A stretch of DNA of 64,000 bases from assembly GCA_964387845.1 (NCBI GenBank), contig CAYLXA010000007.1, positions 32,001 through 96,000 of the forward strand. Reading direction: 5' to 3'. The stretch comes from an uncultured bacterium (lineage in GTDB: Bacteria; Omnitrophota; Omnitrophia; Omnitrophales; Abzuiibacteriaceae). Below, in pieces: positions 11,834 to 27,652 of this stretch. The translations under genes were made by a program, and so were the position numbers. How positions within the stretch are numbered: the stretch's first letter is position 1; every line of letters starts with the position of its first letter. The notes under the pieces are model-generated. The model did no database searches and was not told the DNA's origin. It saw only the letters and a program-made list of their open reading frames with translations.

Positions 11834-12343
11834 TCATGCTTTTCCGAGCTTGATGAGCTGTTTCGGCGTCATGAGCCATTCCAGCGCTGCGCAGCTGTCA
11901 TCCATCAGCATTTCAGTATGCAATTTGGCGAGACTCCCCTTTTTGAATTCAACCGAAACAAACTCTTTGCCGGATATCAGCTTTGCAGTCAAGCGGCTCA
12001 TGAACGGCTCGTGGCCGACCAGCAAAATATCTTCCAAATCGGAATGATAATTTTCAAGTTCGCGGATCAATTTGCTTGGTTCGGCCTCCACTTTTAAAAA
12101 ATTGGAAAGCTGAAGCTTCTTTTTGAGATTCAAAATGTCGGCCACGATTTCGGCTGTCTCGCGGGCGCGGACGTACGGGCTTGATAAAATGAGGTCGAAG
12201 GATAATTTGAGCGCTTTCATGCCTTTGGCGGCTTTCTTCATATCCTGAACGCCATCCTCCGTCAAAGGCCTTTCATCATCGCTGGCGTAGCGGTGGAGGT
12301 TTTTATCTTCCGCTTTTCCGTGCCTCAATAAGTAGAGATTCAT
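11834..12343 (-). CDS. histidine phosphatase family protein (SixA-like phosphohistidine phosphatase)
   Basis: The start is probably MNLYLLRHGKAED (RHG catalytic motif). Also SSPYVRARETAEI...LVGHEP. The track ORF 11834..12382 adds a 13-aa upstream extension. Confidence 0.6.
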   Translation of the reverse strand: MNLYLLRHGKAEDKNLHRYASDDERPLTEDGVQDMKKAAKGMKALKLSFDLILSSPYVRARETAEIVADILNLKKKLQLSNFLKVEAEPSKLIRELENYHSDLEDILLVGHEPFMSRLTAKLISGKEFVSVEFKKGSLAKLHTEMLMDDSCAALEWLMTPKQLIKLGKA

Positions 12344-12375
12344 GATAAACTGCATTATACAAAAAGAGGGCCGGA

Positions 12376-13008
12376 ATGACAAAGCGAGACTTTCGCGAAA
12401 TTGAATTCAAGTGGTCTGTAAAATCTGCAAAAGAATTTGCTATTTTCCTTCATCATGCCAAAAAAATGGGTATCCGAATCGGTCCTGCGAAAAAAATTTC
12501 GATCGTGGATACGTATTTGGATACCCGAAACGGAATGTTTGCAAAATCCGGCATCAAAACCAGAATCCGGCGCGCCAATCAAAAATGGGAGCTGACGCAA
12601 AAGCGTATGAGCAAGCTCCGAAGAGGCCTGGCGAGACGTCAGGAAAAAACAATACGTTTGCCAAATTTTGATTCGGTGATTCAAACCATTCAATATGCTT
12701 CCAAAGAATTCCTTCAGGAATTTTTATGCGGAAAGCATGCCTGCGTGCTTTTCACAATCCGCAATCAACGGATTGCGAGAAAGTTGAAAATAACCCGAAA
12801 GACATCGGCCGAACTCTGCTTTGATCAAACCGTGATAAAACGCGGAAAAAAATCCGTTGTTTTGAAAGAAATCGAACTCGAATTTTTAAAAGGAAGGTTT
12901 TCGGAATTTAAGAAATTTATTTCGGCAATCACCCACTCATCAAGCCTCAAGCCCGCCAAAATTTCCAAAGTTGCGACTGCGCTCAAAACTTTCGGGCTTA
13001 AAACATAA
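12376..13008 (+). CDS. CYTH domain protein (triphosphate tunnel metalloenzyme-like)
   Basis: 210 aa. N-terminal REIEFKW resembles the CYTH EIE[RK]KF signature. SD-like AGAGGG upstream. Divergent from the SixA-like gene. Confidence 0.5.
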   Translation: MTKRDFREIEFKWSVKSAKEFAIFLHHAKKMGIRIGPAKKISIVDTYLDTRNGMFAKSGIKTRIRRANQKWELTQKRMSKLRRGLARRQEKTIRLPNFDSVIQTIQYASKEFLQEFLCGKHACVLFTIRNQRIARKLKITRKTSAELCFDQTVIKRGKKSVVLKEIELEFLKGRFSEFKKFISAITHSSSLKPAKISKVATALKTFGLKT

Positions 13009-13010
13009 CC

Positions 13011-13706
13011 TTACTGCGGCGGAGGAGTCTCGGAAGGTTTTTCGGACTCTTCTTCAGATGAGGGCGCGGATATTTTTGGATCGAATTTTTCCCGTGGTTT
13101 TGCAAACTCTTTCTCAATAATCGCTTTATCGCCAAACCTCATCATGCCCGCCACCAGAGGCCCCGGAAAAGATTGTTTTAACTTATTGCAGGTTTTTGCA
13201 ATGAAATTATAATTTCTCACTTTCGCTTCCAATCTCTCTTCGCACGAATCCAAAGTCGTCCTTGCTACAATGTATTCATGTTTTCTCATTAAATAAGGAT
13301 ATTTGTCGGTGGCCTTTACAAGACGTGTAATAACATTGCCAAATTCAGCCTGGGCAGTTTGAAATTTACCTGTCTTGCCCGGATTAATGTAAAGTTCAGC
13401 CGAAGCTTGAAGCTGCTCAACCTGTAAAGCGATTCGATTGGCTTGAACCATCAAACCCTGATCTTCCTTCTCTTTTTCGTGAGATCCGAAAAGCGAAAAG
13501 ATGGTCGCAATAATTCCCAGGCGCTCCCTGCAGGAAGTGCACAATTCCCTCCAGCCGGTAGTCGCACGGGCATCAGCACTCACCATTTTTGCAAGCACAA
13601 TACAGAATAAAATCGCAAAAATGATATTGGCGCCAACGACCAGGACCAAAAACCCTATGAGCAACTGAATGCCCATTTCGCCTATTGAGCCGGACATTTT
13701 CAGCAT
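13011..13706 (-). CDS. LemA family membrane protein
   Basis: 231 aa. N-terminal TM helix. VRNYNFIAKTCNKLKQSFPGPLVAGMMRFGDK matches the LemA conserved YN...FP...A..FG block. Pro/Glu/Ser-rich C-terminal tail. Confidence 0.6.
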   Translation of the reverse strand: MLKMSGSIGEMGIQLLIGFLVLVVGANIIFAILFCIVLAKMVSADARATTGWRELCTSCRERLGIIATIFSLFGSHEKEKEDQGLMVQANRIALQVEQLQASAELYINPGKTGKFQTAQAEFGNVITRLVKATDKYPYLMRKHEYIVARTTLDSCEERLEAKVRNYNFIAKTCNKLKQSFPGPLVAGMMRFGDKAIIEKEFAKPREKFDPKISAPSSEEESEKPSETPPPQ

Positions 13707-13795
13707 TTTTTAGCGACCTTGGTTGATTGAAATAAGGTGTTCTACAGATAAAGCTTGGTATGGTAATTACGTCGGCTGGATGGATTTCTTGACTT

Positions 13796-13984
13796 TTAAT
13801 CCTGCCGGTCAACTGAAAATGCGACCAGCTCTTCATCTTCAAATTGCGCGGAGATTTGGATGGGCTGGCAGCAAACCGTGCAATCCTGAACAAAAGATTG
13901 CTTCCCGCCGCCTGTTATATCCAAAATAACGCTGTTTAATTGACCGCAGTAAGGGCACTCAAACTCGCAATCCTGCTCAATCAT
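13796..13984 (-). CDS. CPXCG-motif cysteine-rich small protein (zinc ribbon)
   Basis: 62 aa. CPYCG ... CTVCC, two Cys pairs. 9 nt downstream of ppk on the same strand. Confidence 0.5.
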   Translation of the reverse strand: MIEQDCEFECPYCGQLNSVILDITGGGKQSFVQDCTVCCQPIQISAQFEDEELVAFSVDRQD

Positions 13985-13993
13985 AGCCGGAGT

Positions 13994-16078
13994 TTACTTG
14001 GGCTTTTGAGGCTTTAATTCGCGTGGCGGAGCTTGCAAGGAAGCTTCCTCGCGGTCAAGGATGCGTTTGCACAAAAATTCCTGGGCGCGGAATTTTTTTC
14101 TTGAATCCGTTTCGACTTTCTGATAATTCCCGTCCGGCAAAAGCTTCCAAGATTTCACGTTGTCCTTAAAATAAATATCCAAAAGCTGAGTTAGTTCTTT
14201 TTTAATTTCCTTGCTTTCGATCGGAAACATGATTTCGACCCGGCGGTCCAGGTTGCGCGGCATCCAATCGGCGCTCGCCAAATAAACCTCATCCTCGCCG
14301 CCATTCTGAAAGTAGAAAATTCTCGCATGCTCGAGAAACATATCTACCAAACTAGTAACTTCAATGTTGTCGCTCAATCCCTGAACGCCCGGTTTTAAGC
14401 AGCAAATGCCGCGCACATTCAACTTGATTTTAACGCCGGCTTTAGACGCGCGGTACAAAGCTTCGATCACTATCGGATCCACAAGCGAGTTCATTTTGGC
14501 CATAATCAGGCCCGGTTTTTCGGTGCTTGAGCGCATGGATTCACGCGTAATCAGCCGGAGAAGTTTGCGCTTGAGCGTAAACGGCGCGACATCGATTTTG
14601 TTCCAACTGGCCGGCTCCGAAAATCCCGTGATCATATTGAAAAACGCAGACAAGTCACCTGCGATACCCTCGTCACATGTAAAGAGACCGACGTCGGAAT
14701 AAAGCCGTGCGGTTTTCTCATTGTAATTACCGGTTGATAAATGCGCGTAGCGCTTAATTCCTTCCGGCTCACGCCTGATGACAAGACATGCTTTGGCGTG
14801 CGTCTTGAGGCCGCGAACACCGTACAACACGTTGGCGCCTGCGATTTCAAGGCGTTTTGCCCATTCAATATTCCTCTCTTCATCAAAGCGGGCTTTGAGC
14901 TCAACGAGTGCTGTCACCTGCTTGCCGTTTTCCGCTGCGCGCTCCAGCGCACGCATGACGGCCGAATCTTTACCTGCTCGATAAAGTGTTTGCTTAATCG
15001 CAAGCACATCCGGATCGGCAGAAGCCGCATTGATAAATTGCAGAAACGCATCAAAAGATTCATAAGGATGCTGAACACAAACATCCTTTTGTTTGATCAA
15101 TTCCCAGATATCGTCGACGTTCGCAAATTCAACTGATGCGCGAGGCCCCCATTCCGGCTGTTTAAACTCATCAAATCCGGGCCGAAAAGCAATTTGTGAA
15201 ATGGTTTTCAAATCAAACCAGCTTTCGACCGGGCAAATCACCTCATCCGAAAATTCAAGCCGGGTCTTCAAAAATTGCGTGAGTACGGCCGAAGCCGCAA
15301 GCTCGGCGCGGACAATATCGCCGTGACGGCGCGCCCGCAATGCCTCACTCATCACCTGCGCAAAGTCATCATCTCTGTCTTCGTCAATATTAAATTCAGC
15401 GCCGCGCGTCAGACGCATCAAACCCTGATCGATGATTTCGTAGCCGGTAAAAAGTTCGCTCGCAAAAAGCGAAACCACATCTTCCAGCAATACAAATGAG
15501 AACCCCGCGCTCTGCGGTAGCGAAATCATGCGCGGAAGATTGCGCGGAATTTCAATGGCGGCAAACTCTTGCTTAACAGCTCCCGGTTTTAAGAGTGAAA
15601 CCACCATATAAAGCGCCAGATTTCCAAGCGTCGGTGTTCTTTCATTTTCGGAAATAGCGATCGGCGTCAGAACCGGAAACAATTCCTTCTCGAAAAAGTG
15701 GCGGATGTAACTTAGTTGAAACTCATTCAGTGCCTGCTTTTTAATGCGGGAAATCCCTGCTTTTTCAAGTTCCGGGATCAATGTCTTAAGAAAATAATCG
15801 TTCTGAACCTGAATCAGCTGATGCGCTTTAGCGCGAACCTGGCGGGCTTCTTCAGACCCGCTTTTGAGGCCCGCAACCCGTACCATGAAAAATTCGTCGA
15901 AATTTGAACTCACAATTCCGATAAATTTTAACCGCTCCAAAAGCGGATTGGCGGCGTCCATTGCTTCCGCTAAAACCCGTTCATTAAACTGAAGCCACGA
16001 AATTTCGCGGTTAAGCAGGCGATCCTGAATATCTTTGTTGATTTCTGAAGTCGGCATCTTGATAATCTCAAATTTCAA
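13994..16078 (-). CDS. ppk: polyphosphate kinase 1
   Basis: 694 aa. NRELSWLQFNERVL-type N-terminus and two PLD-like HKD regions (HAKACLV, HSKLAL-like). Confidence 0.92.
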   Translation of the reverse strand: MKFEIIKMPTSEINKDIQDRLLNREISWLQFNERVLAEAMDAANPLLERLKFIGIVSSNFDEFFMVRVAGLKSGSEEARQVRAKAHQLIQVQNDYFLKTLIPELEKAGISRIKKQALNEFQLSYIRHFFEKELFPVLTPIAISENERTPTLGNLALYMVVSLLKPGAVKQEFAAIEIPRNLPRMISLPQSAGFSFVLLEDVVSLFASELFTGYEIIDQGLMRLTRGAEFNIDEDRDDDFAQVMSEALRARRHGDIVRAELAASAVLTQFLKTRLEFSDEVICPVESWFDLKTISQIAFRPGFDEFKQPEWGPRASVEFANVDDIWELIKQKDVCVQHPYESFDAFLQFINAASADPDVLAIKQTLYRAGKDSAVMRALERAAENGKQVTALVELKARFDEERNIEWAKRLEIAGANVLYGVRGLKTHAKACLVIRREPEGIKRYAHLSTGNYNEKTARLYSDVGLFTCDEGIAGDLSAFFNMITGFSEPASWNKIDVAPFTLKRKLLRLITRESMRSSTEKPGLIMAKMNSLVDPIVIEALYRASKAGVKIKLNVRGICCLKPGVQGLSDNIEVTSLVDMFLEHARIFYFQNGGEDEVYLASADWMPRNLDRRVEIMFPIESKEIKKELTQLLDIYFKDNVKSWKLLPDGNYQKVETDSRKKFRAQEFLCKRILDREEASLQAPPRELKPQKPK

Positions 16079-16135
16079 AATTCAAATATCAAAATCAGAC
16101 TTTTTAAATTTTGATATTTGAAATTTGAATTTTAT
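16071..16135. repeat. AT-rich palindromic element, copy A (arms AAATTTCAAAATTCAAATATCAAAAT / ATTTTGATATTTGAAATTTGAATTTT)
   Basis: Near-perfect ~26-bp inverted repeat with an 11-nt loop. It exactly fills the ppx-stop to ppk-start spacer. Same core as the copies at 22717 and 27205. Confidence 0.7.
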
Positions 16136-17694
16136 GTTTTTGGCGGTTGACCTTGTTTCAATAAAATCGGCCGGCCGAAAATGTCGGAAAACATGCTGCC
16201 TTTTTTGGATAATCCGTCACGCTCGAGCGTCACATCGCCGATTTCTTCAGGAACCCATAAAACAAACGAATCTTTCTTGGACTCAAGTTCAAACGTACGG
16301 ATTTTTTGCTGATGACTCCGGTCTAATGAATCGGCCACCCGTAAAATAGCCGCAAGTTTTGAAACGGTGGCCCGGTCTTGCTTGGTCAGTGACATGTAGG
16401 CCACATGATCCGGCTGAGGAGACGCGCGGCGGTGATAACGCACAATATTTGAGACAAGATCTTTATCGCTTTTTCGAAGCCCGAAAATTTCGGCGGCATC
16501 GACTAAGTAACTGGAATGTTTATGGTGGCTTGTGGCCGCAATAAACATGCCGATATCGTGCAAAATAGCGGAGACCTCAAGTATCAGCCGGTCACGCGTT
16601 CCGAGCCCGTGCTCCTCTTTCAGCAAATCAAATAATTTAACCGACAAACTGGCGACATGCAGCGAATGGGATTCGTCATATTGATATTTTTTTGCCAAAT
16701 GCTTTGCCGAGTTAATGACCTGCTTTGACAAATCAGTTCTTTTATAGCCCGAAAGCAACTGGGAAAGTTCGATCAAAAGGCCGTCCCGGATACTGACCGC
16801 AGGCACCACAATCTTCTCCGCTTTCGTTTCATTCGCAAAATTAGCATAAATCAAGAGAGACGGATAAAGCGTTTCTGCTTCTACATAAGGAATGCCGTAT
16901 TTATCCACAATTTCTTCGGGGGTTAATTTTGAAAGGCTTGTTACAAATTTCTGGAAATCCTTGTTATCAATAATTGAAAAATCTTCCGCAGGTTTTTCAA
17001 TCAGCTGTTTGGCGGCAAAACGAATGTCGCCGCCTAAAGCAATAAACGTATCAATTTCACCCAGATTATATTCACGGCCCGCATAAACCGCGATTCCGTG
17101 AATGCTGCGCTTTAAAACGCGCTGCATCACTTCCGGTTCGGTCTTGCCTGCAATCGCCTGCTCGGGAAGCCGCACGGACCCGATCGAAAGCATCCGGGTC
17201 AATTCGACAACGCCTTTATTTAAAATAATCATTTCCGTACTTCCGGATCCTACTTCAATCACCAGACAATTCTTTTTACCAAAATCAAATTTATCCTGGA
17301 AGACACGCTCAATCGCAATCAGCACAAGCCGGTTTTCCTCCGCGCCTTCCACGACTTCCACATCAATTCCGGTTTGGACAAACACGCGGTCGACGAAATT
17401 ATCGCGGTTAGAAGCTTCTCGGACAGCGCTCGTCGCAATGGCATGAATATTTTTAATGTTGTAGCCGTCAATAACGGTCTTAAAATTCTTGAGAATTTCG
17501 ATACCGTCACGCATCACGCTGTTGCTGATTCTTCCGGAGGTAAACACATCTTTGCCGAAGGCGACGGGTTTTTGAAGATTCTCAAGATAATGAATTTCAG
17601 ACTTTCCTCCCACTTCGGCAACCGCCATGCGGATTCCGCTCGTTCCGATATCAATCACCGCAACCGGTTGTTTGACCGCTGTCTCCGCAGACAT
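16132..17694 (-). CDS. ppx: Ppx/GppA family exopolyphosphatase / guanosine pentaphosphate phosphohydrolase with C-terminal HD domain
   Basis: The start is probably MSAETAVKQPVAVIDIGTSGIRM (ASKHA fold N-terminus). The HD motif ILHDIG is present. The track ORF extends 41 aa further upstream into the ROK gene. The corrected start overlaps the ROK stop by 4 nt. Confidence 0.85.
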   Translation of the reverse strand: MSAETAVKQPVAVIDIGTSGIRMAVAEVGGKSEIHYLENLQKPVAFGKDVFTSGRISNSVMRDGIEILKNFKTVIDGYNIKNIHAIATSAVREASNRDNFVDRVFVQTGIDVEVVEGAEENRLVLIAIERVFQDKFDFGKKNCLVIEVGSGSTEMIILNKGVVELTRMLSIGSVRLPEQAIAGKTEPEVMQRVLKRSIHGIAVYAGREYNLGEIDTFIALGGDIRFAAKQLIEKPAEDFSIIDNKDFQKFVTSLSKLTPEEIVDKYGIPYVEAETLYPSLLIYANFANETKAEKIVVPAVSIRDGLLIELSQLLSGYKRTDLSKQVINSAKHLAKKYQYDESHSLHVASLSVKLFDLLKEEHGLGTRDRLILEVSAILHDIGMFIAATSHHKHSSYLVDAAEIFGLRKSDKDLVSNIVRYHRRASPQPDHVAYMSLTKQDRATVSKLAAILRVADSLDRSHQQKIRTFELESKKDSFVLWVPEEIGDVTLERDGLSKKGSMFSDIFGRPILLKQGQPPKT

Positions 17695-17695
17695 T

Positions 17696-18703
17696 TTAAT
17701 CCCTCTTCTTTTCCTGGTAGTGATCCCACGCCAGTTTGGCAGCGCCCAAAATAATCGCGTCATCTTTGAGCTGTGCCGGCACAACCGCAACGTATTTGGC
17801 GATCGACTGCATGGCATGCTGCCGCATTGATTCGCGCGCTTCGTTCACTACAATACGTGACATCGCTTCTACCAACCCTCCGCCCAAGACAATCATCTCG
17901 GGATTGAGGATATTGACCACATTCGCCATCGCAATACCGAGGATGCGCGACTTTCGGATCATCAGGTCTTTGATTTTTTGATCCCCGGCATCAATCGCAC
18001 GTTTCAATGCGCCGCTTTTAATGTCTTTGATGTCCGTCCCGGACATTTTGTATAGTTTCGGAGCCTGTTGCTTCGCTGCCAAGAGCGCTGCTTCTGAAGC
18101 AATCGCCAAGCGGCCCGCCAATGCCTCCAGACAACCGCGCTTGCCGCATCCGCACATCGGGCCCAGTGGATCCACCAAAATATGCCCGATTTCGCCTGCA
18201 GCGCCAGTAAATCCGCGATACAACGCGCCATTTAATATGAGAGCGCCGCCGATGCCGGTTCCCGGAAAAATACCGACCACATGCTTATGGCCTTTGGCGG
18301 CGCCGAAAACAAGTTCTCCATAGAGGCCTGCATTGACGTCATTTTCGAGGACAACCGGTACTTTAAAGATTTTGGATATTTTTTTTGCAAGCGGATATTG
18401 CTTCAGAAAACGAACATTTGGCGATTCAATCACAACACCGCGATCATCAATAATGCCCGGGCAGCCGATGCCGATGGCTTTCAGATTCTTAAGATCGACG
18501 TCCGATTCATCGGTAACTTGATAAATACTTTCTGCGATATCATCAATAAAATTTTTCCCGCCTTTAGACACTTCGGTTTTCATTTTTGTGGAAGCCAAAA
18601 CGCGGAAATGATCATTCATTAAAGCGGTCAGCATCTTGGTGCCGCCCAAATCAATGCCGACAATATATTTTTTCTTTTTCTTATTTTTTTTCTTTTTTGC
18701 CAT
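17696..18703 (-). CDS. ROK family sugar kinase (glucokinase-like) with poly-lysine N-terminus
   Basis: 335 aa. MAKKKKNKKKKKYIVGIDLGGTKM. Zinc motif CGCGKRGCLE typical of ROK kinases. Confidence 0.8.
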   Translation of the reverse strand: MAKKKKNKKKKKYIVGIDLGGTKMLTALMNDHFRVLASTKMKTEVSKGGKNFIDDIAESIYQVTDESDVDLKNLKAIGIGCPGIIDDRGVVIESPNVRFLKQYPLAKKISKIFKVPVVLENDVNAGLYGELVFGAAKGHKHVVGIFPGTGIGGALILNGALYRGFTGAAGEIGHILVDPLGPMCGCGKRGCLEALAGRLAIASEAALLAAKQQAPKLYKMSGTDIKDIKSGALKRAIDAGDQKIKDLMIRKSRILGIAMANVVNILNPEMIVLGGGLVEAMSRIVVNEARESMRQHAMQSIAKYVAVVPAQLKDDAIILGAAKLAWDHYQEKKRD

Positions 18704-18705
18704 CG

Positions 18706-19650
18706 CTAATTCCTTGACACTGCAAGCTCGGGAAAGTTAAGTTTTTGCCAGCCGGTCCCCTGATGACCAAAGCTGAAAAGCTCCGGGTGAAAAATCTCTG
18801 CCAAAATTTCAAATGATTCCAAAAGCCTCGGGCCGGGCCGGTTAAAATATTGATTACCGTCCGCCAAAAACACCTTTCTTTCGCGCACCGCTTTTAACTG
18901 GTTCCAACCGGGCTGCGCAAAAAGCGGTTCTAATTCGGTTTTGGTCCGGGCCATATCAAATCCGCACGGCACAATCATGATCACATCCGGATCTGCTTCT
19001 TTTAACTTTTCCCACTCAAGCCAGGGAGAATGTTTTCCGGCTTCGCCAAATAAATTATCAGCACCGGCTGCTTCCACGAGTTCCGGAACCCAATTACCGG
19101 ACGTCATTAAAGGATCGATCCATTCCAAAAGCACGGTACGCGGACGGTTATTTGCTTGGTGCGCTTTTTTGGCAATGGCTGCCATTTGATTTTCCATATC
19201 CCGGACAAGTTTTTCGCCATTTTGTTTCACACCAAGCTCGCCGGCAATTTTCAAAATATCCGAGAAAACATCTGAAAGTGAATTGGGTTTGAACGAAATG
19301 ATTCTTGCCTTAGATCCCATCATTTCACAAACTGCTTGTTCTACATCCTTCAAACTTACCGCACAAACCTCGCACTGATCCTGAGTCAGGATAAAATCGG
19401 GCGCCAGAGATTTAAGTTTTGCAGAATCGATCTCATAGATAGAGATCGCATTGTGCGCGAGCGATTTGACCGCCCGGTCGATCTCGGAGCTTTTGGCATA
19501 AATATCAATCTTGGGCTTGCTGAGCTGCGGAAGTTCTTTAACGGATCCGGGGAAATCACACTCATGCGAGCGGCCGATTAATTGATCTCGGAGCCCAAGT
19601 GCGCAAATAATTTCTGTTGCGCTCGACAGCAGAGATACAATTTTCGGCAT
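18706..19650 (-). CDS. periplasmic-binding-protein type (class III, BtuF/FhuD-like) protein lacking a signal peptide
   Basis: 314 aa. It starts directly with the first beta-strand motif KIVSLLSSATEIICALG. No hydrophobic leader. Confidence 0.6.
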   Translation of the reverse strand: MPKIVSLLSSATEIICALGLRDQLIGRSHECDFPGSVKELPQLSKPKIDIYAKSSEIDRAVKSLAHNAISIYEIDSAKLKSLAPDFILTQDQCEVCAVSLKDVEQAVCEMMGSKARIISFKPNSLSDVFSDILKIAGELGVKQNGEKLVRDMENQMAAIAKKAHQANNRPRTVLLEWIDPLMTSGNWVPELVEAAGADNLFGEAGKHSPWLEWEKLKEADPDVIMIVPCGFDMARTKTELEPLFAQPGWNQLKAVRERKVFLADGNQYFNRPGPRLLESFEILAEIFHPELFSFGHQGTGWQKLNFPELAVSRN

Positions 19651-19679
19651 AAAACACCTTCTGTCGCATTGAACACCCT

Positions 19680-20210
19680 TTAATTGATCGCGACAATGCG
19701 AGAATCGCGCAACGCAGGATTGATACGCTCAAACGACCAACTCAACCCAAAAAGAACAACGGTAAACAGCATATCGCCGGCTAAAGTATTTCTGAAAAAC
19801 GGGAGCGCCATGGCGAAACATTCCACAAGCCCAGCCATAGTCTTAGGATACAACGTGTCAATGAGCCATACGCCGAAATTAGTAATCATAAAAAACATGA
19901 CGGAACTTGCAAGCGCCGCAATCAAAATATTGCCGGCGCTTTTCTTTTGCCGAAGCCAAAACCCGATGCCAATCACCAAAGCCAGGCAGCCATAAGTCGC
20001 GATTACTTGACTATGAAAACCAATTACCAGATCGCTTAACAAGAGCGCGCCGAAAGTGACCAGAAAAGCAGCACGTTTATCGGAAAACTGTGCACCGCCA
20101 AAAAGCGCCATCGCCACAACGGGCGTTAAGTTCGGTGGATGAGGAATCAGCCGTGAAGCAGCTGCGGATAAGGTTAACGCAAGCAGCATCCAAAATCTGG
20201 GTTTTAACAT
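19680..20210 (-). CDS. small integral membrane protein (ECF S-component-like / putative substrate-capture protein)
   Basis: 176 aa, ~5-6 predicted TM helices (MLLALTLSAA..., LVIGFHSQV..., FFMITNFGVWLI...). Confidence 0.4.
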   Translation of the reverse strand: MLKPRFWMLLALTLSAAASRLIPHPPNLTPVVAMALFGGAQFSDKRAAFLVTFGALLLSDLVIGFHSQVIATYGCLALVIGIGFWLRQKKSAGNILIAALASSVMFFMITNFGVWLIDTLYPKTMAGLVECFAMALPFFRNTLAGDMLFTVVLFGLSWSFERINPALRDSRIVAIN

Positions 20211-22069: not shown

Positions 22070-22167
22070 GGCTATTCTTAAAAATCAGATAATATAGATT
22101 ACTTTTTTCGTCAACTTGCAGGCTTTTAGTCTATAAAACTGCGTGAATTTTGTCAAACTGAGAATGG

Positions 22168-22716
22168 CTATCGCCACTTAATGGAGCAACCCATGGAGGG
22201 GACTTGATTTGCAGGAATTGGCTTACCATCAACGAGGCAGTCTATGGCCTCTTTCAACTCCTGTTTCTTCACCTTGGATTCTTCTTTCCAATTGTCATCC
22301 AAGCGGCCGTGATAGACGAGTTCGTGATTAACGTCAAACAGATAAAGGTCGGGGGTGCACTGTGCCTGGAATTTCTTGGCAATTCCCTGCGTTTCATCAA
22401 CCAAATACGGAAATTGCAAATCCCATGCCTCGATATTGTCCCTCATTTTCTCAGGCGCATCTTCCGGATAACCCGGATGAATATTGGGATTAATCGCAAC
22501 CGTGTTCACATCCATTTCTTTGGCGTATTTCGCAAGCTTGATCAAGCGCGGCCAGATTGCCTGTGCGTAAGGACAATGGTTGCACGTAAAAACCACAAGC
22601 AACCCTTTCCTGCCCATGAGCTGCCGGCCCGAAAAATGTTCACCGTATGGATCCGGCAGGTCAAATGCCGGCATTTTGTTTCCGAGCGGAAGTTTTAAAG
22701 ATTCGACGAGTGCCAT
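22168..22716 (-). CDS. thioredoxin-fold redoxin (AhpC/TSA-like thiol-disulfide oxidoreductase)
   Basis: 182 aa. VVFTCNHCPYAQ CxxC-type motif in a thioredoxin-like context. Confidence 0.6.
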   Translation of the reverse strand: MALVESLKLPLGNKMPAFDLPDPYGEHFSGRQLMGRKGLLVVFTCNHCPYAQAIWPRLIKLAKYAKEMDVNTVAINPNIHPGYPEDAPEKMRDNIEAWDLQFPYLVDETQGIAKKFQAQCTPDLYLFDVNHELVYHGRLDDNWKEESKVKKQELKEAIDCLVDGKPIPANQVPSMGCSIKWR

Positions 22717-22790
22717 AATTTTAATATCAAAATCTAAATTTCAAATATCAAAACATCTTTTGAATTTTGATATTTGATATTTGAATTTAT
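22717..22790. repeat. AT-rich palindromic element, copy B (ATATCAAAATCTAAATTTCAAATATCAAAA ... TTTTGATATTTGATATTTGAATTT)
   Basis: Inverted repeat filling the spacer between the TPR-protein stop and the redoxin start. Shares the core AAATTTCAAATATCAAAA with copies A and C. Confidence 0.7.
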
Positions 22791-22798
22791 GTTGCTGG

Positions 22799-24679
22799 TT
22801 ATTGAGGTTTGTCGGTGAAACTTTCTTTCAAGTTATTATAAATTTGCCTGGCTTTTTGATTGTTCGGATCCAAGCTCATCACAGTTTCGAGCGATTTTCT
22901 GGCATCCACATAAAGCCCCTGCGCCAAATATGCGACCGCTAAATTTAAATGTGCTTCCGGGTCATTCCAGTTTTGATTAAGTGCAAACTGAAGCTCCATC
23001 TGAGCCGCATCAAAACGCCGGGCCCGATTATAAAGCATTCCCAGATTCTTGTGAAGCTGCGCTTCCTGCTTAGGCGTCTTTGCGTACTGTAATCCTTCAC
23101 GAAATACGCCGTCCGCCATCGGATACCTTTCCAACTGCGTTAAGCAAACACCGAGAATTCCGTAAATGTCCGGATCATCTTTCTTGCTCCTCAATAGACC
23201 GGCATACTCTTGAGCGCATTGCTCCCAAAGTCCCAATTGATAATAAGATTCGCCGAGCCGCTTGTGGCATTCAATGGTCGGATTGATCTTGCAGGCATTT
23301 TCAAATCCGTCAATCGCGTCTTTTTGCCGCCCGGTTTTTAAATAAAGATTTCCAAGCCGTATGAAAATTTCTGACGGCTGATCAGCATTCATTTCATTGA
23401 TCTCGCCGCGTACGGTTTGACTGGGAGCTGCTTGAAGCGCAAGCGATAGAAAATCGTAGGCTTTCTGATAATTGCCGAGATGAAAGTAAGACCATCCTAA
23501 ATTGCTTAATACTTTCGGATTCCTGTTTTGGATGCGCAGAGCTTCCGTCAATAATTTTGCGGCTTCGTCGTATTTTGCGCGCCTCATCTGAACAGCCGCC
23601 ATATTGATTTTCGCATCGTAATTTTTCGGATCCAAGACAAGCGCACGATTCCATGCGTAAAATGCCGGTTCATAATTTTCCTTGTTAAAATGAGAGATGC
23701 CAAGCCAGTTTAAGGCGTCGGCTTTCATCGGATTTTGGCTGGCGACGGTAAAAAGATCCACGGCGGTACCGAGCTCCTGAATAGCTTCCTCATATTTGCC
23801 CAATTTTGCATATAAAATTCCCAAATCAAGCCGCGCTTGGGGATTTTGAGGATTTAATTTAATCGCCGCCTGCCAGGCCTTGACGGCTTCGTCGGTTTTG
23901 CCGAGTTTGATTTCGAAAACACCAAGCCAATAATAAAAATCGAACGATTGTTCGGTTTGGACTAACTTTTTATAAGCCGACAGCAACTGCCCTGCATATC
24001 CTTGTTCGATAAATTCCGTTCCCTTTTTAAAATCAACTTCCCGGACAAGCCGTATAATTTCGCGGTTCACCGGGTCAAACGCCGTCGGCGTCTGCCGATC
24101 CGCGACAGGATACATCATCGAGCGAGAATCTTTGGTGTGGATGGCACCGAAAAGATGGCCGAGTTCGTGCGCGAGCACAGTTTCCTCCTGGACTTTAAGC
24201 AAAGGCTGCGCCGGATAGCGCATGATGAGGTAGCCGGAAAAGGGCCTCGCGCGCCCAATCACATCGAGGTCGCGAAGGCTCGTTAAATTCTGATAGGACC
24301 GGAGCCGCGTGAGGCCGATGACAATATCAACCTGCGCTTTCTCAAGCGGAAAGCTATTTCTCAAATCTTCGATCAAGTAGCCGGAATCATCGATGTCGCC
24401 TCCGAGCTTCCATTCCCAAACCACCACCGGCACAAAGCGAATTTGAAATTCACGTTCAAAAATTTGGGATGCATAGGCAAGCCGCTCTTTGAATTTTTCT
24501 TTCCAGGCAGTATCCGCGCGGATATCCTGTGTTGCGGCAATGCCGACTCTGAGCTCACGCAAAGTATCCGCATTCGCCGGATAACTCGCTAATAAAATCA
24601 AAAAGAGAAAAGACGGGAAAAATTTTCTAAGAAATGAGACGTGGTTTTGGGTTTGAGGGATAATTGGACATTCCGGCAT
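22799..24679 (-). CDS. secreted metzincin-type zinc metalloprotease domain fused to a long TPR repeat array
   Basis: 626 aa. Signal peptide. AHELGHLFGAIH fits HExxHxxGxxH, with a downstream SRSMMYP Met-turn. At least 10 TPR-like repeats follow. Confidence 0.65.
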   Translation of the reverse strand: MPECPIIPQTQNHVSFLRKFFPSFLFLILLASYPANADTLRELRVGIAATQDIRADTAWKEKFKERLAYASQIFEREFQIRFVPVVVWEWKLGGDIDDSGYLIEDLRNSFPLEKAQVDIVIGLTRLRSYQNLTSLRDLDVIGRARPFSGYLIMRYPAQPLLKVQEETVLAHELGHLFGAIHTKDSRSMMYPVADRQTPTAFDPVNREIIRLVREVDFKKGTEFIEQGYAGQLLSAYKKLVQTEQSFDFYYWLGVFEIKLGKTDEAVKAWQAAIKLNPQNPQARLDLGILYAKLGKYEEAIQELGTAVDLFTVASQNPMKADALNWLGISHFNKENYEPAFYAWNRALVLDPKNYDAKINMAAVQMRRAKYDEAAKLLTEALRIQNRNPKVLSNLGWSYFHLGNYQKAYDFLSLALQAAPSQTVRGEINEMNADQPSEIFIRLGNLYLKTGRQKDAIDGFENACKINPTIECHKRLGESYYQLGLWEQCAQEYAGLLRSKKDDPDIYGILGVCLTQLERYPMADGVFREGLQYAKTPKQEAQLHKNLGMLYNRARRFDAAQMELQFALNQNWNDPEAHLNLAVAYLAQGLYVDARKSLETVMSLDPNNQKARQIYNNLKESFTDKPQ

Positions 24680-26641: not shown

Positions 26642-27148
26642 TCAAAACGGCGATGCGGCGACCAGGGCCGCCTGAATATAAACCAGCTGAATCCACACCG
26701 GAACCGCGCTTGGATCCGATACGCTCCGCTCGCCAGTGACTTTGGTCACGCCGATGGCAATCCAGACAAAACCCGTTAAACGCTTAAAGAAATTTTGAAA
26801 AACCGGTTCCGCGACTGCATCATTCGGAATTTGGAGCAATACCCCAACCAGCACAAGCCCGAGCCAAACCGCGCCGCTCGGCCATCTGGAAAGTTTGCGG
26901 ATATTGACGAAAAAAGCCTGGGCAGCGCAAATCATAAGGACGATACCCATCGCCAAAAAAGAAACGTGGCCGCGCCTTAAAAATGGTTCCAGACAAAACA
27001 AGCCGAATAAAAATGCAAACAAAGGCCATAAGAAAAGGGATTTCGGAATCAAAGAAGACGATTTTGCTTCAAGCAATGCAAAAGTAGCCATCGCGATGAG
27101 AAGCCCTGCCGCAACCCAGTGACTGATGATCGGAATATAGGGATTCAT
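26642..27148 (-). CDS. integral membrane protein (hypothetical)
   Basis: 168 aa, 4-5 predicted TM helices. No recognisable family. Confidence 0.4.
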   Translation of the reverse strand: MNPYIPIISHWVAAGLLIAMATFALLEAKSSSLIPKSLFLWPLFAFLFGLFCLEPFLRRGHVSFLAMGIVLMICAAQAFFVNIRKLSRWPSGAVWLGLVLVGVLLQIPNDAVAEPVFQNFFKRLTGFVWIAIGVTKVTGERSVSDPSAVPVWIQLVYIQAALVAASPF

Positions 27149-27204
27149 TCTGGTTTAAATGACGGCTCAAATTTGGCGATTCTTTAACTCAATAGAGTAT
27201 AATA

Positions 27205-27335
27205 AAACCCAATTTCAAATATCAAAATCTAAAACAAATTCTAAATTTAAATGTTTCAATAGCCGTTTTGAAATTCAATATTTAGTAATTTGAAATTGTT
27301 TGGATATTTGAAATTTGACATTTGAATTTAAATAT
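27205..27335. repeat. AT-rich palindromic element, copy C (extended; AATTTCAAATATCAAAATCTAAAAC ... GGATATTTGAAATTTGACATTTGAATTT)
   Basis: Lies in the divergent spacer between the membrane protein and the Rieske gene. Same core as copies A and B, with additional internal TTTGAAATT repeats. Confidence 0.65.
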
Positions 27336-27346
27336 GAGGAGGACTC

Positions 27347-27652
27347 ATGGGAAATTTCACAAAAGCAGCATCGGCAAAAGATATTCAAGACGGTGCTGGA
27401 GTCGCTGTAGAAGTCGGCGGAAAATCAATTGCTGTTTTTAATTGCGGCGGACAATTCTACGCCATCGATAATACTTGCAAACATCGCGGCGGCCCGCTTG
27501 GGGAAGGCAGTTTGGACGGCAATGTGGTCACCTGCCCCTGGCACGGCTGGCAATTTGATATTACAAACGGAAATTGTGTCACCAACCCTGCCGGTAAAGT
27601 GGAGTCTTATCCTGTCAAAGTCGAAGGCAGCGATATTTTAGTTGAGATTTAG
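27347..27652 (+). CDS. Rieske [2Fe-2S] domain protein (NirD-like small ferredoxin)
   Basis: 101 aa. CKHRGGPL ... CPWHGWQF Rieske Cys/His boxes. GGAGG Shine-Dalgarno 7 nt upstream. Confidence 0.8.
   Translation: MGNFTKAASAKDIQDGAGVAVEVGGKSIAVFNCGGQFYAIDNTCKHRGGPLGEGSLDGNVVTCPWHGWQFDITNGNCVTNPAGKVESYPVKVEGSDILVEI

Follow-up and report, generated by a model that had tools for sequence, protein, structure and literature searches.

REP and REPIN sequences (REP, repetitive extragenic palindrome) are short, species-specific palindromes that are mobilised by RAYT proteins (PMC3116915). The Correia/CREE repeats of Neisseria, ERIC and RUP, all miniature inverted-repeat transposable elements (MITEs, small elements of <200-400 bp), are non-coding and ~65-130 bp long, have inverted ends that form a long hairpin, are present or absent at orthologous sites and often lie 5' of genes, where they can provide outward promoters (PMC3184786). 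The dispersed repeat SPRITE of S. pneumoniae has a terminator-like fold made of an A-rich tract, a hairpin and a U-rich tract (PMC3184786). Intergenic heptanucleotide repeats, such as the cyanobacterial short tandemly repeated repetitive sequences (STRR) and TAACTGA of Beggiatoaceae, cyanobacteria and Bacteroidetes, consist of a 7-nt unit repeated head to tail, often end a few bases from a start codon and have a scattered phylogenetic distribution (PMC4679880). Here we analyzed three A/T-rich hairpin elements, called copies A, B and C, in a 64,000-nt stretch of DNA from an Omnitrophota bacterium (contig CAYLXA010000007.1, positions 32,001-96,000; this whole stretch is hereafter called the window). 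The elements are set apart from other small palindromic intergenic repeats by being built of heptamers with a CAAA core and by having relatives in kind across several phyla.

Omnitrophota are uncultured, and to our knowledge their repeats, promoters and mRNA processing have not been described; a literature search for these sequences, or for heptamer hairpins in Omnitrophota, found no description. With somewhat more than even confidence, we read A, B and C as copies of one small non-coding palindromic dispersed repeat, similar to REPs and MITEs, that recently spread in this Omnitrophota lineage. The elements, none of which has a strand, are as follows (bit scores refer to the covariance model described below).

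16070..16133: copy A, hairpin repeat, recognized by its arms, fold, period of 7 and covariance-model match (35.7 bits)
22717..22788: copy B, hairpin repeat, recognized by its arms, fold, period of 7 in both arms and covariance-model match (35.9 bits)
27207..27337: copy C, longer and more degenerate hairpin repeat with 7-9 heptads per arm, recognized by its arms, fold and covariance-model match (35.6 bits)

Heptamer arms and hairpins of the three elements

The initial annotation of this DNA had reported related sequences in three spacers within 11 kb. Its coordinates were right, and the similarity goes far beyond chance. The motif TTCAAATATCAAAA, with at most one mismatch, has 7 matches in the 64 kb, all within the three spacers, where 0.12 were expected, and this number was reached in 0 of 100 shuffles of the whole window. 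The 17-mer AATTTCAAATATCAAAA occurs exactly in all three spacers. The ~25-nt core named in the annotation turned out to be a composite 24-mer, although it does find one match per spacer (with 1, 3 and 1 mismatches; 0.00 expected). Because shuffling the whole window is too lenient a control for AT-rich DNA, the three spacers themselves were shuffled with their dinucleotide content kept. The longest exact words in common are 18 nt for A and B, 18 nt for A and C, and 17 nt for B and C, and a 17-nt word shared by any pair appeared in only 1 of 1000 such shuffles. The suspicion that the motif merely occurs at the frequency expected of AT-rich intergenic DNA was thus answered, the excess surviving a null built from the AT-rich spacers. 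The G+C content of the three spacers is 15-25%, compared with 30-51% in every other window spacer of at least 40 nt. No further copy was found in the 64-kb window by a density scan, a regular expression for heptad arrays or the covariance model, and no heptad array was present in the other window spacers of at least 40 nt.

Copy A has 26-nt arms (16070-16095 and 16108-16133) that are 92% complementary around a 12-nt loop, in agreement with the ~26 bp annotated. The arms of copy B (22730-22753 and 22765-22788) are 24 nt long and 88% complementary, the range for its arms being 24-29 nt and 76-88%, and those of copy C (27211-27227 and 27299-27315) are 17 nt long and 94% complementary, with further nested pairing over ~130 nt. 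The spacing between arms is 12 nt in A, 11-13 nt in B and 51-71 nt in C. The predicted folds have energies of -22.4 kcal/mol for copy A (z -5.8), -17.2 to -18.6 kcal/mol for copy B (z ~ -3.3) and -27.4 kcal/mol for copy C (z -3.0).

The arms are arrays of a degenerate 7-nt unit, for which TRF reported a period of 7 with 4.0-4.9 copies and 74-83% matches in four arms. When phased on its C, the unit reads CAAA(T/A)(T/A)T (CAAAWWT) in the A-rich arm and its complement in the T-rich arm; CAAATAT is the commonest form (7 occurrences), followed by CAAATTT (3), CAAAATT (2) and CAAAATC (2). A collinear core, (C/T)AAATTT-CAAATAT-CAAAA, is present in four of the six arms. The centre between the arms is short and not conserved, so that the loops differ among copies while the arms share the core. 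Read 5' to 3', every copy has its A-rich arm before its T-rich arm, and, the element being palindromic, this order is the same on either strand. The outer two units of copy A are swapped between its arms, which accounts for the two mismatches in its stem. The arrays hold no internal palindrome and are not GC-rich; the stems contain only 2-3 G-C pairs, and the 3' arm, although U-rich, is interrupted by G or A every 7 nt.

The elements lie next to the following genes.

13994..16057, minus strand: ppk, polyphosphate kinase 1, 687 aa, downstream of copy A (Pfam; database protein P0001 is 100% identical and has the same ATG)
16132..17694, minus strand: ppx, Ppx/GppA phosphatase, called as 520 aa, upstream of copy A (Pfam; gene call in L152)
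22168..22716, minus strand: AhpC/TSA-redoxin gene, downstream of copy B (Pfam)
22799..24679, minus strand: TPR-repeat metalloprotease gene, upstream of copy B (Pfam)
26642..27148, minus strand: 168-aa protein, divergent from copy C (no Pfam match)
27347..27652, plus strand: Rieske [2Fe-2S] protein gene, with copy C in its inferred 5' untranslated region (UTR) (Pfam)

Copy A fills the spacer between ppx (stop codon 16132-16134) and ppk (ATG at 16057), as had been annotated, and shares 2 nt with the ppx stop codon. Copy B starts 10 nt past the stop codon of the metalloprotease gene and extends to the redoxin ATG. Both therefore span the distance from stop to start between genes on the same strand, and do not lie at convergent gene ends. 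Copy C is located between divergent starts, between a shared -10 box and the Shine-Dalgarno sequence of the Rieske gene. Hence, the tandem and divergent placements given in the annotation are correct, whereas convergent ends apply to none of the three. All three spacers appear to be transcribed, two being intercistronic and one a 5' UTR.

Orthologous sites in related lineages

We compared the three sites with contigs of four related lineages (numbered with L), in which gene order is kept and the flanking proteins are 80-89% identical. Site A is 74 nt long in the window and only 8 nt ('gcataatc') in L001, whose ppk is 84% identical; in L003 (88% identical) it is 57 nt long and AT-rich, without a significant hairpin (z -1.4). 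The idea that the element supplies a new stop codon was rejected, since ppx ends at the same codon in the window, L001 and L003. Site B, between the protease and redoxin genes, measures 82 nt in the window, 19 nt in L135, 8 nt in L153 and 5 nt in L156. The element-free site in L135 consists of two heptads, AAAACTT AAAACTT. Site C, between the Rieske gene and the gene for the 168-aa protein, measures 198 nt in the window, 82 nt in L156 and 86 nt in L158. Here the window, L153, L156 and L158 have in common a 32-nt leader ahead of the gene for the 168-aa protein and the -10 box, which reads gTATAATg on the Rieske strand, and the expansion in the window is confined to the segment between the Rieske Shine-Dalgarno sequence and the -10 box, which places copy C in the inferred Rieske 5' UTR.

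The reverse case was also observed. L001 has an AT-rich hairpin of its own (AAGGTTAAAGTTCAAAGTTAAAAA..., 16256-16324) that separates the ATG of a His_Phos_1 gene from its TATAAT box and is built of another unit (AAGGTTA AAGTTCA AAGTTAA), while the orthologous site of the window (12340-12382, minus strand) has TATAAT, 10 nt and the ATG without a hairpin. About 55 kb more DNA from the relatives contained no such hairpin. The window's elements make their spacers ~65-130 nt longer than the orthologous spacers of close relatives. Each of the three elements is thus a gain in the lineage of the window, or else was lost everywhere else, and elements of this kind turn over quickly.

Two further observations were made at site C. 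The 32-nt leader TTAAAGAATCRCYAARTTWRAGCCGTCATTTA (window 27152-27186, minus strand) is conserved in the window, L153, L156 and L158 in a spacer that otherwise does not align, and is a candidate for a cis-regulatory element of the two divergent genes. At the spot of copy C, L153 (9845-9930) carries a different, GC-richer nested palindrome, GTCATTGCGAAGC...GAAGCAATCTGCATGGATTGCTTC...GCGTCTCGCAATGAC, and the site seems to attract hairpin inserts.

The Logan assembly of the same strain reproduces copies A and C base for base. Its unitigs break inside copy B, where the end of L134 (13740-13779) and the start of L152 (1-30) correspond to window 22760-22790 with a 30-nt (k-1) overlap. Such a break implies a branch of the assembly graph, caused either by other sequence with the same 30-mer or by a length variant in the population that differs in its number of heptads.

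Because close relatives lack the element at the same sites, a young REP/MITE-like repeat is the most likely reading. Its spread would be by DNA-level copying, either by a transposase acting in trans or by hairpin-templated copying. A hairpin made of A and U only is probably tolerated inside mRNAs, which would explain how copies could persist in operons and leaders. Between cistrons, an A/U helix of 20 or more bp might plausibly serve as a site for RNase III processing, as a stability site or as a weak attenuator, and the T-rich arm might act as an outward -35 box for the downstream gene. The element itself is probably selfish or neutral.

The annotation had suggested that the elements might be a genome-specific REP/MITE-like repeat. 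The repeat character stood, given the collinear core, the hairpins, their absence from the orthologous spacers of relatives and the related "dialects" found elsewhere; strict membership of either class would go beyond these similarities. The copies resemble REP/REPIN sequences in having an inverted pair around a less conserved spacer, in being predicted to form hairpins in single-stranded DNA or mRNA, in lying in operons and in differing between close relatives (PMC3116915). The REP itself, however, is a GC-rich imperfect palindrome, whereas the arms in the window are A/T-rich arrays of 7-nt units without one, and REP/REPINs go with a cognate RAYT (Y1 transposase) gene that is flanked by the repeats. 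With MITEs the copies share the features listed at the outset, the outward promoters being a predicted ability in our case; in contrast to them, the whole element is an inverted repeat and not its ends alone, collinearity between the copies stops short of their full length, and no IHF-type site was seen on inspection of A, B and C (IHF-like sites, WATCAANNNNTTR, were looked for by eye and rejected). Sites of the attC/integron cassette type, considered because of the variable centre and the same-strand genes, were rejected as well: the RYYYAAC/GTTRRRY ends are absent and the flanks are syntenic housekeeping genes.

Several points weigh against a dispersed repeat. By eye, no target-site duplication or sharp common terminus was found at A, B or C, the boundaries being fuzzy, and the insertion breakpoints cannot be mapped to the base since the spacers of the relatives are too diverged. 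A Pfam search of the window's open reading frames (ORFs) found no transposase or RAYT, the only recombinase being a syntenic XerC/D-like gene, and no autonomous insertion sequence with matching inverted repeats, from which a MITE takes its transposase, lies there. REP/REPINs and MITEs are expected in tens to hundreds of copies over a whole genome; the 64-kb host window holds the three known ones, all within 11 kb. Moreover, they differ in length and in the order of heptads, and together with the swapped outer units of copy A this looks more like array dynamics than cut-and-paste transposition.

The comparison of orthologous sites also bears on the proposal that the elements are palindromic operators of one regulator tying together the polyphosphate, redoxin and Rieske loci. 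A palindromic sequence does lie upstream of three start codons, and the neighbouring genes could all relate to stress. However, the sequence is absent from the same spacers in relatives that have the same genes in the same order, the distance between the arms is not fixed (12, 11-13 and 51-71 nt), and each arm is 26-70 nt of repeated units with no half-site. In addition, two of the copies occupy transcribed intercistronic space from stop to start, and the only adjacent gene that could encode a regulator, that of a ROK-family protein, is also present where the element is absent. We therefore regard shared operators as very improbable.

Heptad hairpins in other genomes

When the pattern CAAATATCAAA-N(6-36)-TTTGATATTTG was scanned over 185,579 species genomes, at least 119 loci in many phyla were found. 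Among the matches listed, which are the ones described below and do not include the host genome, a part are ordinary GC-stem terminators with such flanks. Counted only in the flanks, outside the search pattern, CAA falls 195 times into the 7-nt phase and 9-47 times into each other phase, implying that most of the listed matches are parts of longer heptad hairpins. A metagenome scan with the exact palindrome of copy A found one unrelated human-gut locus only.

Five of the matches are ~130-nt elements from four other Omnitrophota species, with a mean column identity of 81%.

L023, 4234-4365: ~130-nt Omnitrophota hairpin
L012, 2-133: ~130-nt Omnitrophota hairpin
L012, 4096-4228: ~130-nt Omnitrophota hairpin
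L005, 4921-5052: ~130-nt Omnitrophota hairpin
L032, 847-977: ~130-nt Omnitrophota hairpin

They fill non-orthologous same-strand spacers of housekeeping operons from stop to start (among them rpsD-rpoA, aminoacyl-tRNA synthetase-rimP, and after infB). Like the copies of the window, they have the CAAA/TTTG unit core, an A-rich 5' arm and a T-rich 3' arm, and the same stop-to-start filling; the window copies are shorter, have other variable bases, and lack both the AATAAAT/ATTTATT joint and the termini of these hairpins. These termini follow the approximate pattern (T)AATGWCAAAT...ATTTGWCATT(A).

A covariance model built from these hairpins, R1, found only A, B and C in the 64 kb, at 33-36 bits (E ~1e-4 over 390 kb), while its founding sequences scored 116-130 bits and the hairpin of L001 28.6 bits. 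R1 also matched elements in Patescibacteria, Anaerolineae, Acidobacteriota, Bacteroidota and other metagenome-assembled genomes (MAGs). We read a match to R1 as the same kind of element rather than as proof of common descent, because periodic low-complexity sequence inflates the scores.

A MAG of the Heliobacteriaceae (CAYXVZ01) holds at least 23 collinear copies of ~100 nt with the structure AAATCAAAAGGCAAAAGGCAAATATCAAAAGGCAAAAG-[centre]-complement.

L013, L021, L024, L038, L052, L053, L055, L058, L064, L070, L072, L075, L076, L078, L084, L086, L092, L102, L110-L112, L118 and L122: Heliobacteriaceae copies

The arms of these copies are conserved, while their 8-18-nt centres are all different. 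Several variants in the arms are mirrored on both arms, for example in L052, L070, L112 and L118, which suggests that the palindrome is actively maintained or was made by fold-back copying.

The order of the arms was uniform as well: the A-rich arm came first in 57 of the 57 array pairs of the retrieved loci, three of which had not been selected by the pattern. As a control of orientation, viral contigs gave 8 A-first and 4 T-first matches, none of the heptad type, that is, a background level only. The gene context of the heptad-type matches (17 tandem, 1 convergent and 2 divergent) did not differ significantly from the baseline of 231:54:62, the ORF calling behind these counts being crude.

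These features, namely CAAA/TTTG cores every 7 nt, an A-rich arm 5', a centre unique to each copy and variants mirrored across the arms, led us to a tentative proposal to which we give only a small chance of being right. There may be a class of "heptad hairpin" elements in Omnitrophota, Patescibacteria, Acidobacteriota, Heliobacteriaceae, Bacteroidota and others that spreads without classical transposition involving terminal inverted repeats and target-site duplications. One arm would be copied, the other would be regenerated by fold-back synthesis around a loop derived from the target, and a protein that covers one heptamer at a time would preserve the 7-nt period.

Alternatively, each element could have arisen where it stands. 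Heptamer arrays would expand by slippage, template switching across the nascent hairpin would mirror the arms, and the shared words would reflect a few favoured units. The lack of a target-site duplication and of sharp termini, the varying length and order and the lack of a nearby transposase keep this model alive, and so do several features of the arrays: the period of 7 with 4-5 copies in the arms, a unit order that differs between arms as well as between copies, the two heptads at the element-free B site of L135, and the exact tandem AATATCA AATATCA in copy B, where the assembly graph branches. The mirrored variants of the Heliobacteriaceae point in the same direction. Heptanucleotides are reported to be the most abundant class of long simple sequence repeats in most prokaryotic genomes, according to a statement that PMC4679880 cites from Mrazek et al. 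Nevertheless, exact 17-18-nt words in all three spacers and a three-unit core in four of six arms are hard to obtain independently, and the ~130-nt Omnitrophota elements, together with the collinear Heliobacteriaceae copies, show copying between loci. An origin in place therefore seems somewhat unlikely to us. The window copies also differ from the STRR and TAACTGA repeats, with which they share the head-to-tail 7-nt unit, the intergenic position, the frequent end near a start codon and the scattered distribution (PMC4679880): those are direct repeats of one exact heptamer without a predicted fold, whereas the units here are degenerate (CAAA plus 3 variable bases) and always form two inverted arrays with significant hairpin folds.

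The layout of the arms raises the question of transcription termination, since an A-rich arm 5' and a U-rich arm 3' on both strands is the layout of a bidirectional terminator. According to this explanation, the elements would be selected A/U-rich bidirectional intrinsic terminators or attenuators (A tract, hairpin, U tract). The overlap of copy A with the upstream stop codon and the start of copy B just after one would fit, as would the many non-heptad matches that are typical terminators with a GC stem between such flanks. Of the Heliobacteriaceae copies whose context could be classified, 6 of 14 are flanked by convergent genes, compared with 27% of all spacers, and a dispersed repeat with a terminator-like fold is already known in SPRITE (PMC3184786). 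An intrinsic terminator, however, is a short G+C-rich stem-loop followed by a U tract at the 3' end of a transcription unit, and A, B and C have neither feature. A terminator scan called no site in the three elements, so that the annotation was correct in saying that they are not ordinary GC-rich terminators. Unlike SPRITE, the copies are located in a 5' UTR or in the gaps of same-strand gene pairs, and G-C pairs are nearly absent from them. Terminators at A and B would split gene pairs that are only 5-19 nt apart in relatives and hence presumably co-transcribed, copy C and the L001 element follow a -10 box and precede the start codon, so that termination there would switch the gene off, and other Omnitrophota copies separate rpsD from rpoA. 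The elements are also not conserved at orthologous sites. Taken together, selected terminators or attenuators are unlikely.

A function at the RNA level was considered as well: an arm with UUUG every 7 nt would be bound by a single-strand-binding protein that covers 7 nt, such as a cold-shock protein or S1. By opening the hairpin, this protein would govern read-through, processing or translation of the cistron that follows. The copies of the window and of L001 end 0-12 nt before a start codon or Shine-Dalgarno sequence, in transcribed DNA. In the alignment of the ~130-nt Omnitrophota hairpins, the CAAA/TTTG cores are invariant, while the 3 nt between them vary and pair only partly, often being unpaired. 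CspB is reported to bind heptamer repeats with one protein per heptamer (PMC4679880). On the other hand, the sense strand was no better than the other in folding energy or G-U pairs (10 versus 16 of 26 oriented elements, p = 0.56), RNAalifold gave no net covariation (term +2.1), and, as mentioned above, orthologous sites lack the elements. Rfam 15 searched over the window returned only two tRNAs at the gathering score, and even at E up to 5 no family overlapped A, B or C. We consider such regulatory hairpins doubtful.

If the copies are a young dispersed repeat, their position inside operons (ppx-ppk here, rpsD-rpoA elsewhere) and in 5' UTRs would make them natural markers for strain typing and natural experiments on how A/U hairpins affect polycistronic expression; the repeat is also a cause of assembly breaks. 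The architecture found across phyla, with its unique centres and mirrored arm variants, merits a genome-wide study. If the wider pattern holds (the CAAA/TTTG architecture of 7 nt in several phyla, with unique loops and mirrored variants), it would point to a shared mechanism that makes or maintains palindromes, which, if true, is not described by the REP/RAYT or MITE/transposase models.

Promoter-like sequences and genomic neighbourhood

The promoter-like sequences in and beside the elements are as follows; those supplied by the arms are consensus matches only.

27196..27203: -10 box shared by both directions and retained beside copy C, TATAAT on the plus strand at 27198-27203 (Rieske gene) and TATACT on the minus strand at 27201-27196 (gene for the 168-aa protein), conserved in L153, L156 and L158
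16064..16092, minus strand: promoter-like sequence in the T-rich arm of copy A, TTGATA-17-GAGATT, 6 nt before the ppk ATG; weak (8/12), below the scan threshold, putative
22723..22751, minus strand: promoter-like sequence in the T-rich arm of copy B, TTGATA-17-GATATT, 6 nt before the redoxin ATG; 9/12, putative

The T-rich arm is a run of -35-like hexamers (TTGATA/TTGAAA/TTGACA). In L153, L156 and L158, the -10 box beside copy C is conserved as ATTATAC / gTATAATg, and the scan found TTGATA-18-TATACT in the left arm of copy C, matching 10 of 12 consensus positions and directed toward the gene for the 168-aa protein. A promoter scan of 19 kb gave 30 promoter-like matches, 4 of which fall in the ~330 nt that the elements occupy; three of these four face the downstream gene (two at B, one at C), and the match at copy A is antisense into ppx. 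Elsewhere in the window, promoters were seen before His_Phos_1 (TTGTCA-17-TATAAT) and before PEPCK (TTGACA-17-TAGACT), and from such matches the host appears to use promoters of the TTGACA/TATAAT type. The near-consensus promoter of His_Phos_1 (window 12354-12382, minus strand) ends just 10 nt before the ATG, implying a leaderless or nearly leaderless mRNA.

Otherwise the window is ordinary chromosome, with genes that include pur genes, sodC, the xerC/D-like gene, ligA, an mraZ-mraW-PBP cluster, obg, rpmA and POR. The named best homologues are from Candidatus Omnitrophica/Omnitrophota. A phosphate/polyphosphate neighbourhood extends over 11834-20210, with His_Phos_1, a CYTH-domain protein (plus strand), LemA, ppk, ppx, the ROK-family protein, Peripla_BP_2 and DUF6580, followed by PEPCK; the N-terminus of the ROK-family protein, encoded at 18668-18698, is rich in Lys. 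In a relative, ~9 kb are inserted between redoxin and PEPCK (L153 15160-20507; L001 1-3635), with a gene for a 2139-aa SpvB/TcdB/RHS toxin and small ORFs, where the spacer of the window is 98 nt long (22070-22167). Of the about 62 ORFs of the window, 58 are on the minus strand, and the GC skew is negative throughout, which fits a single replichore arm with a strong gene-strand bias.

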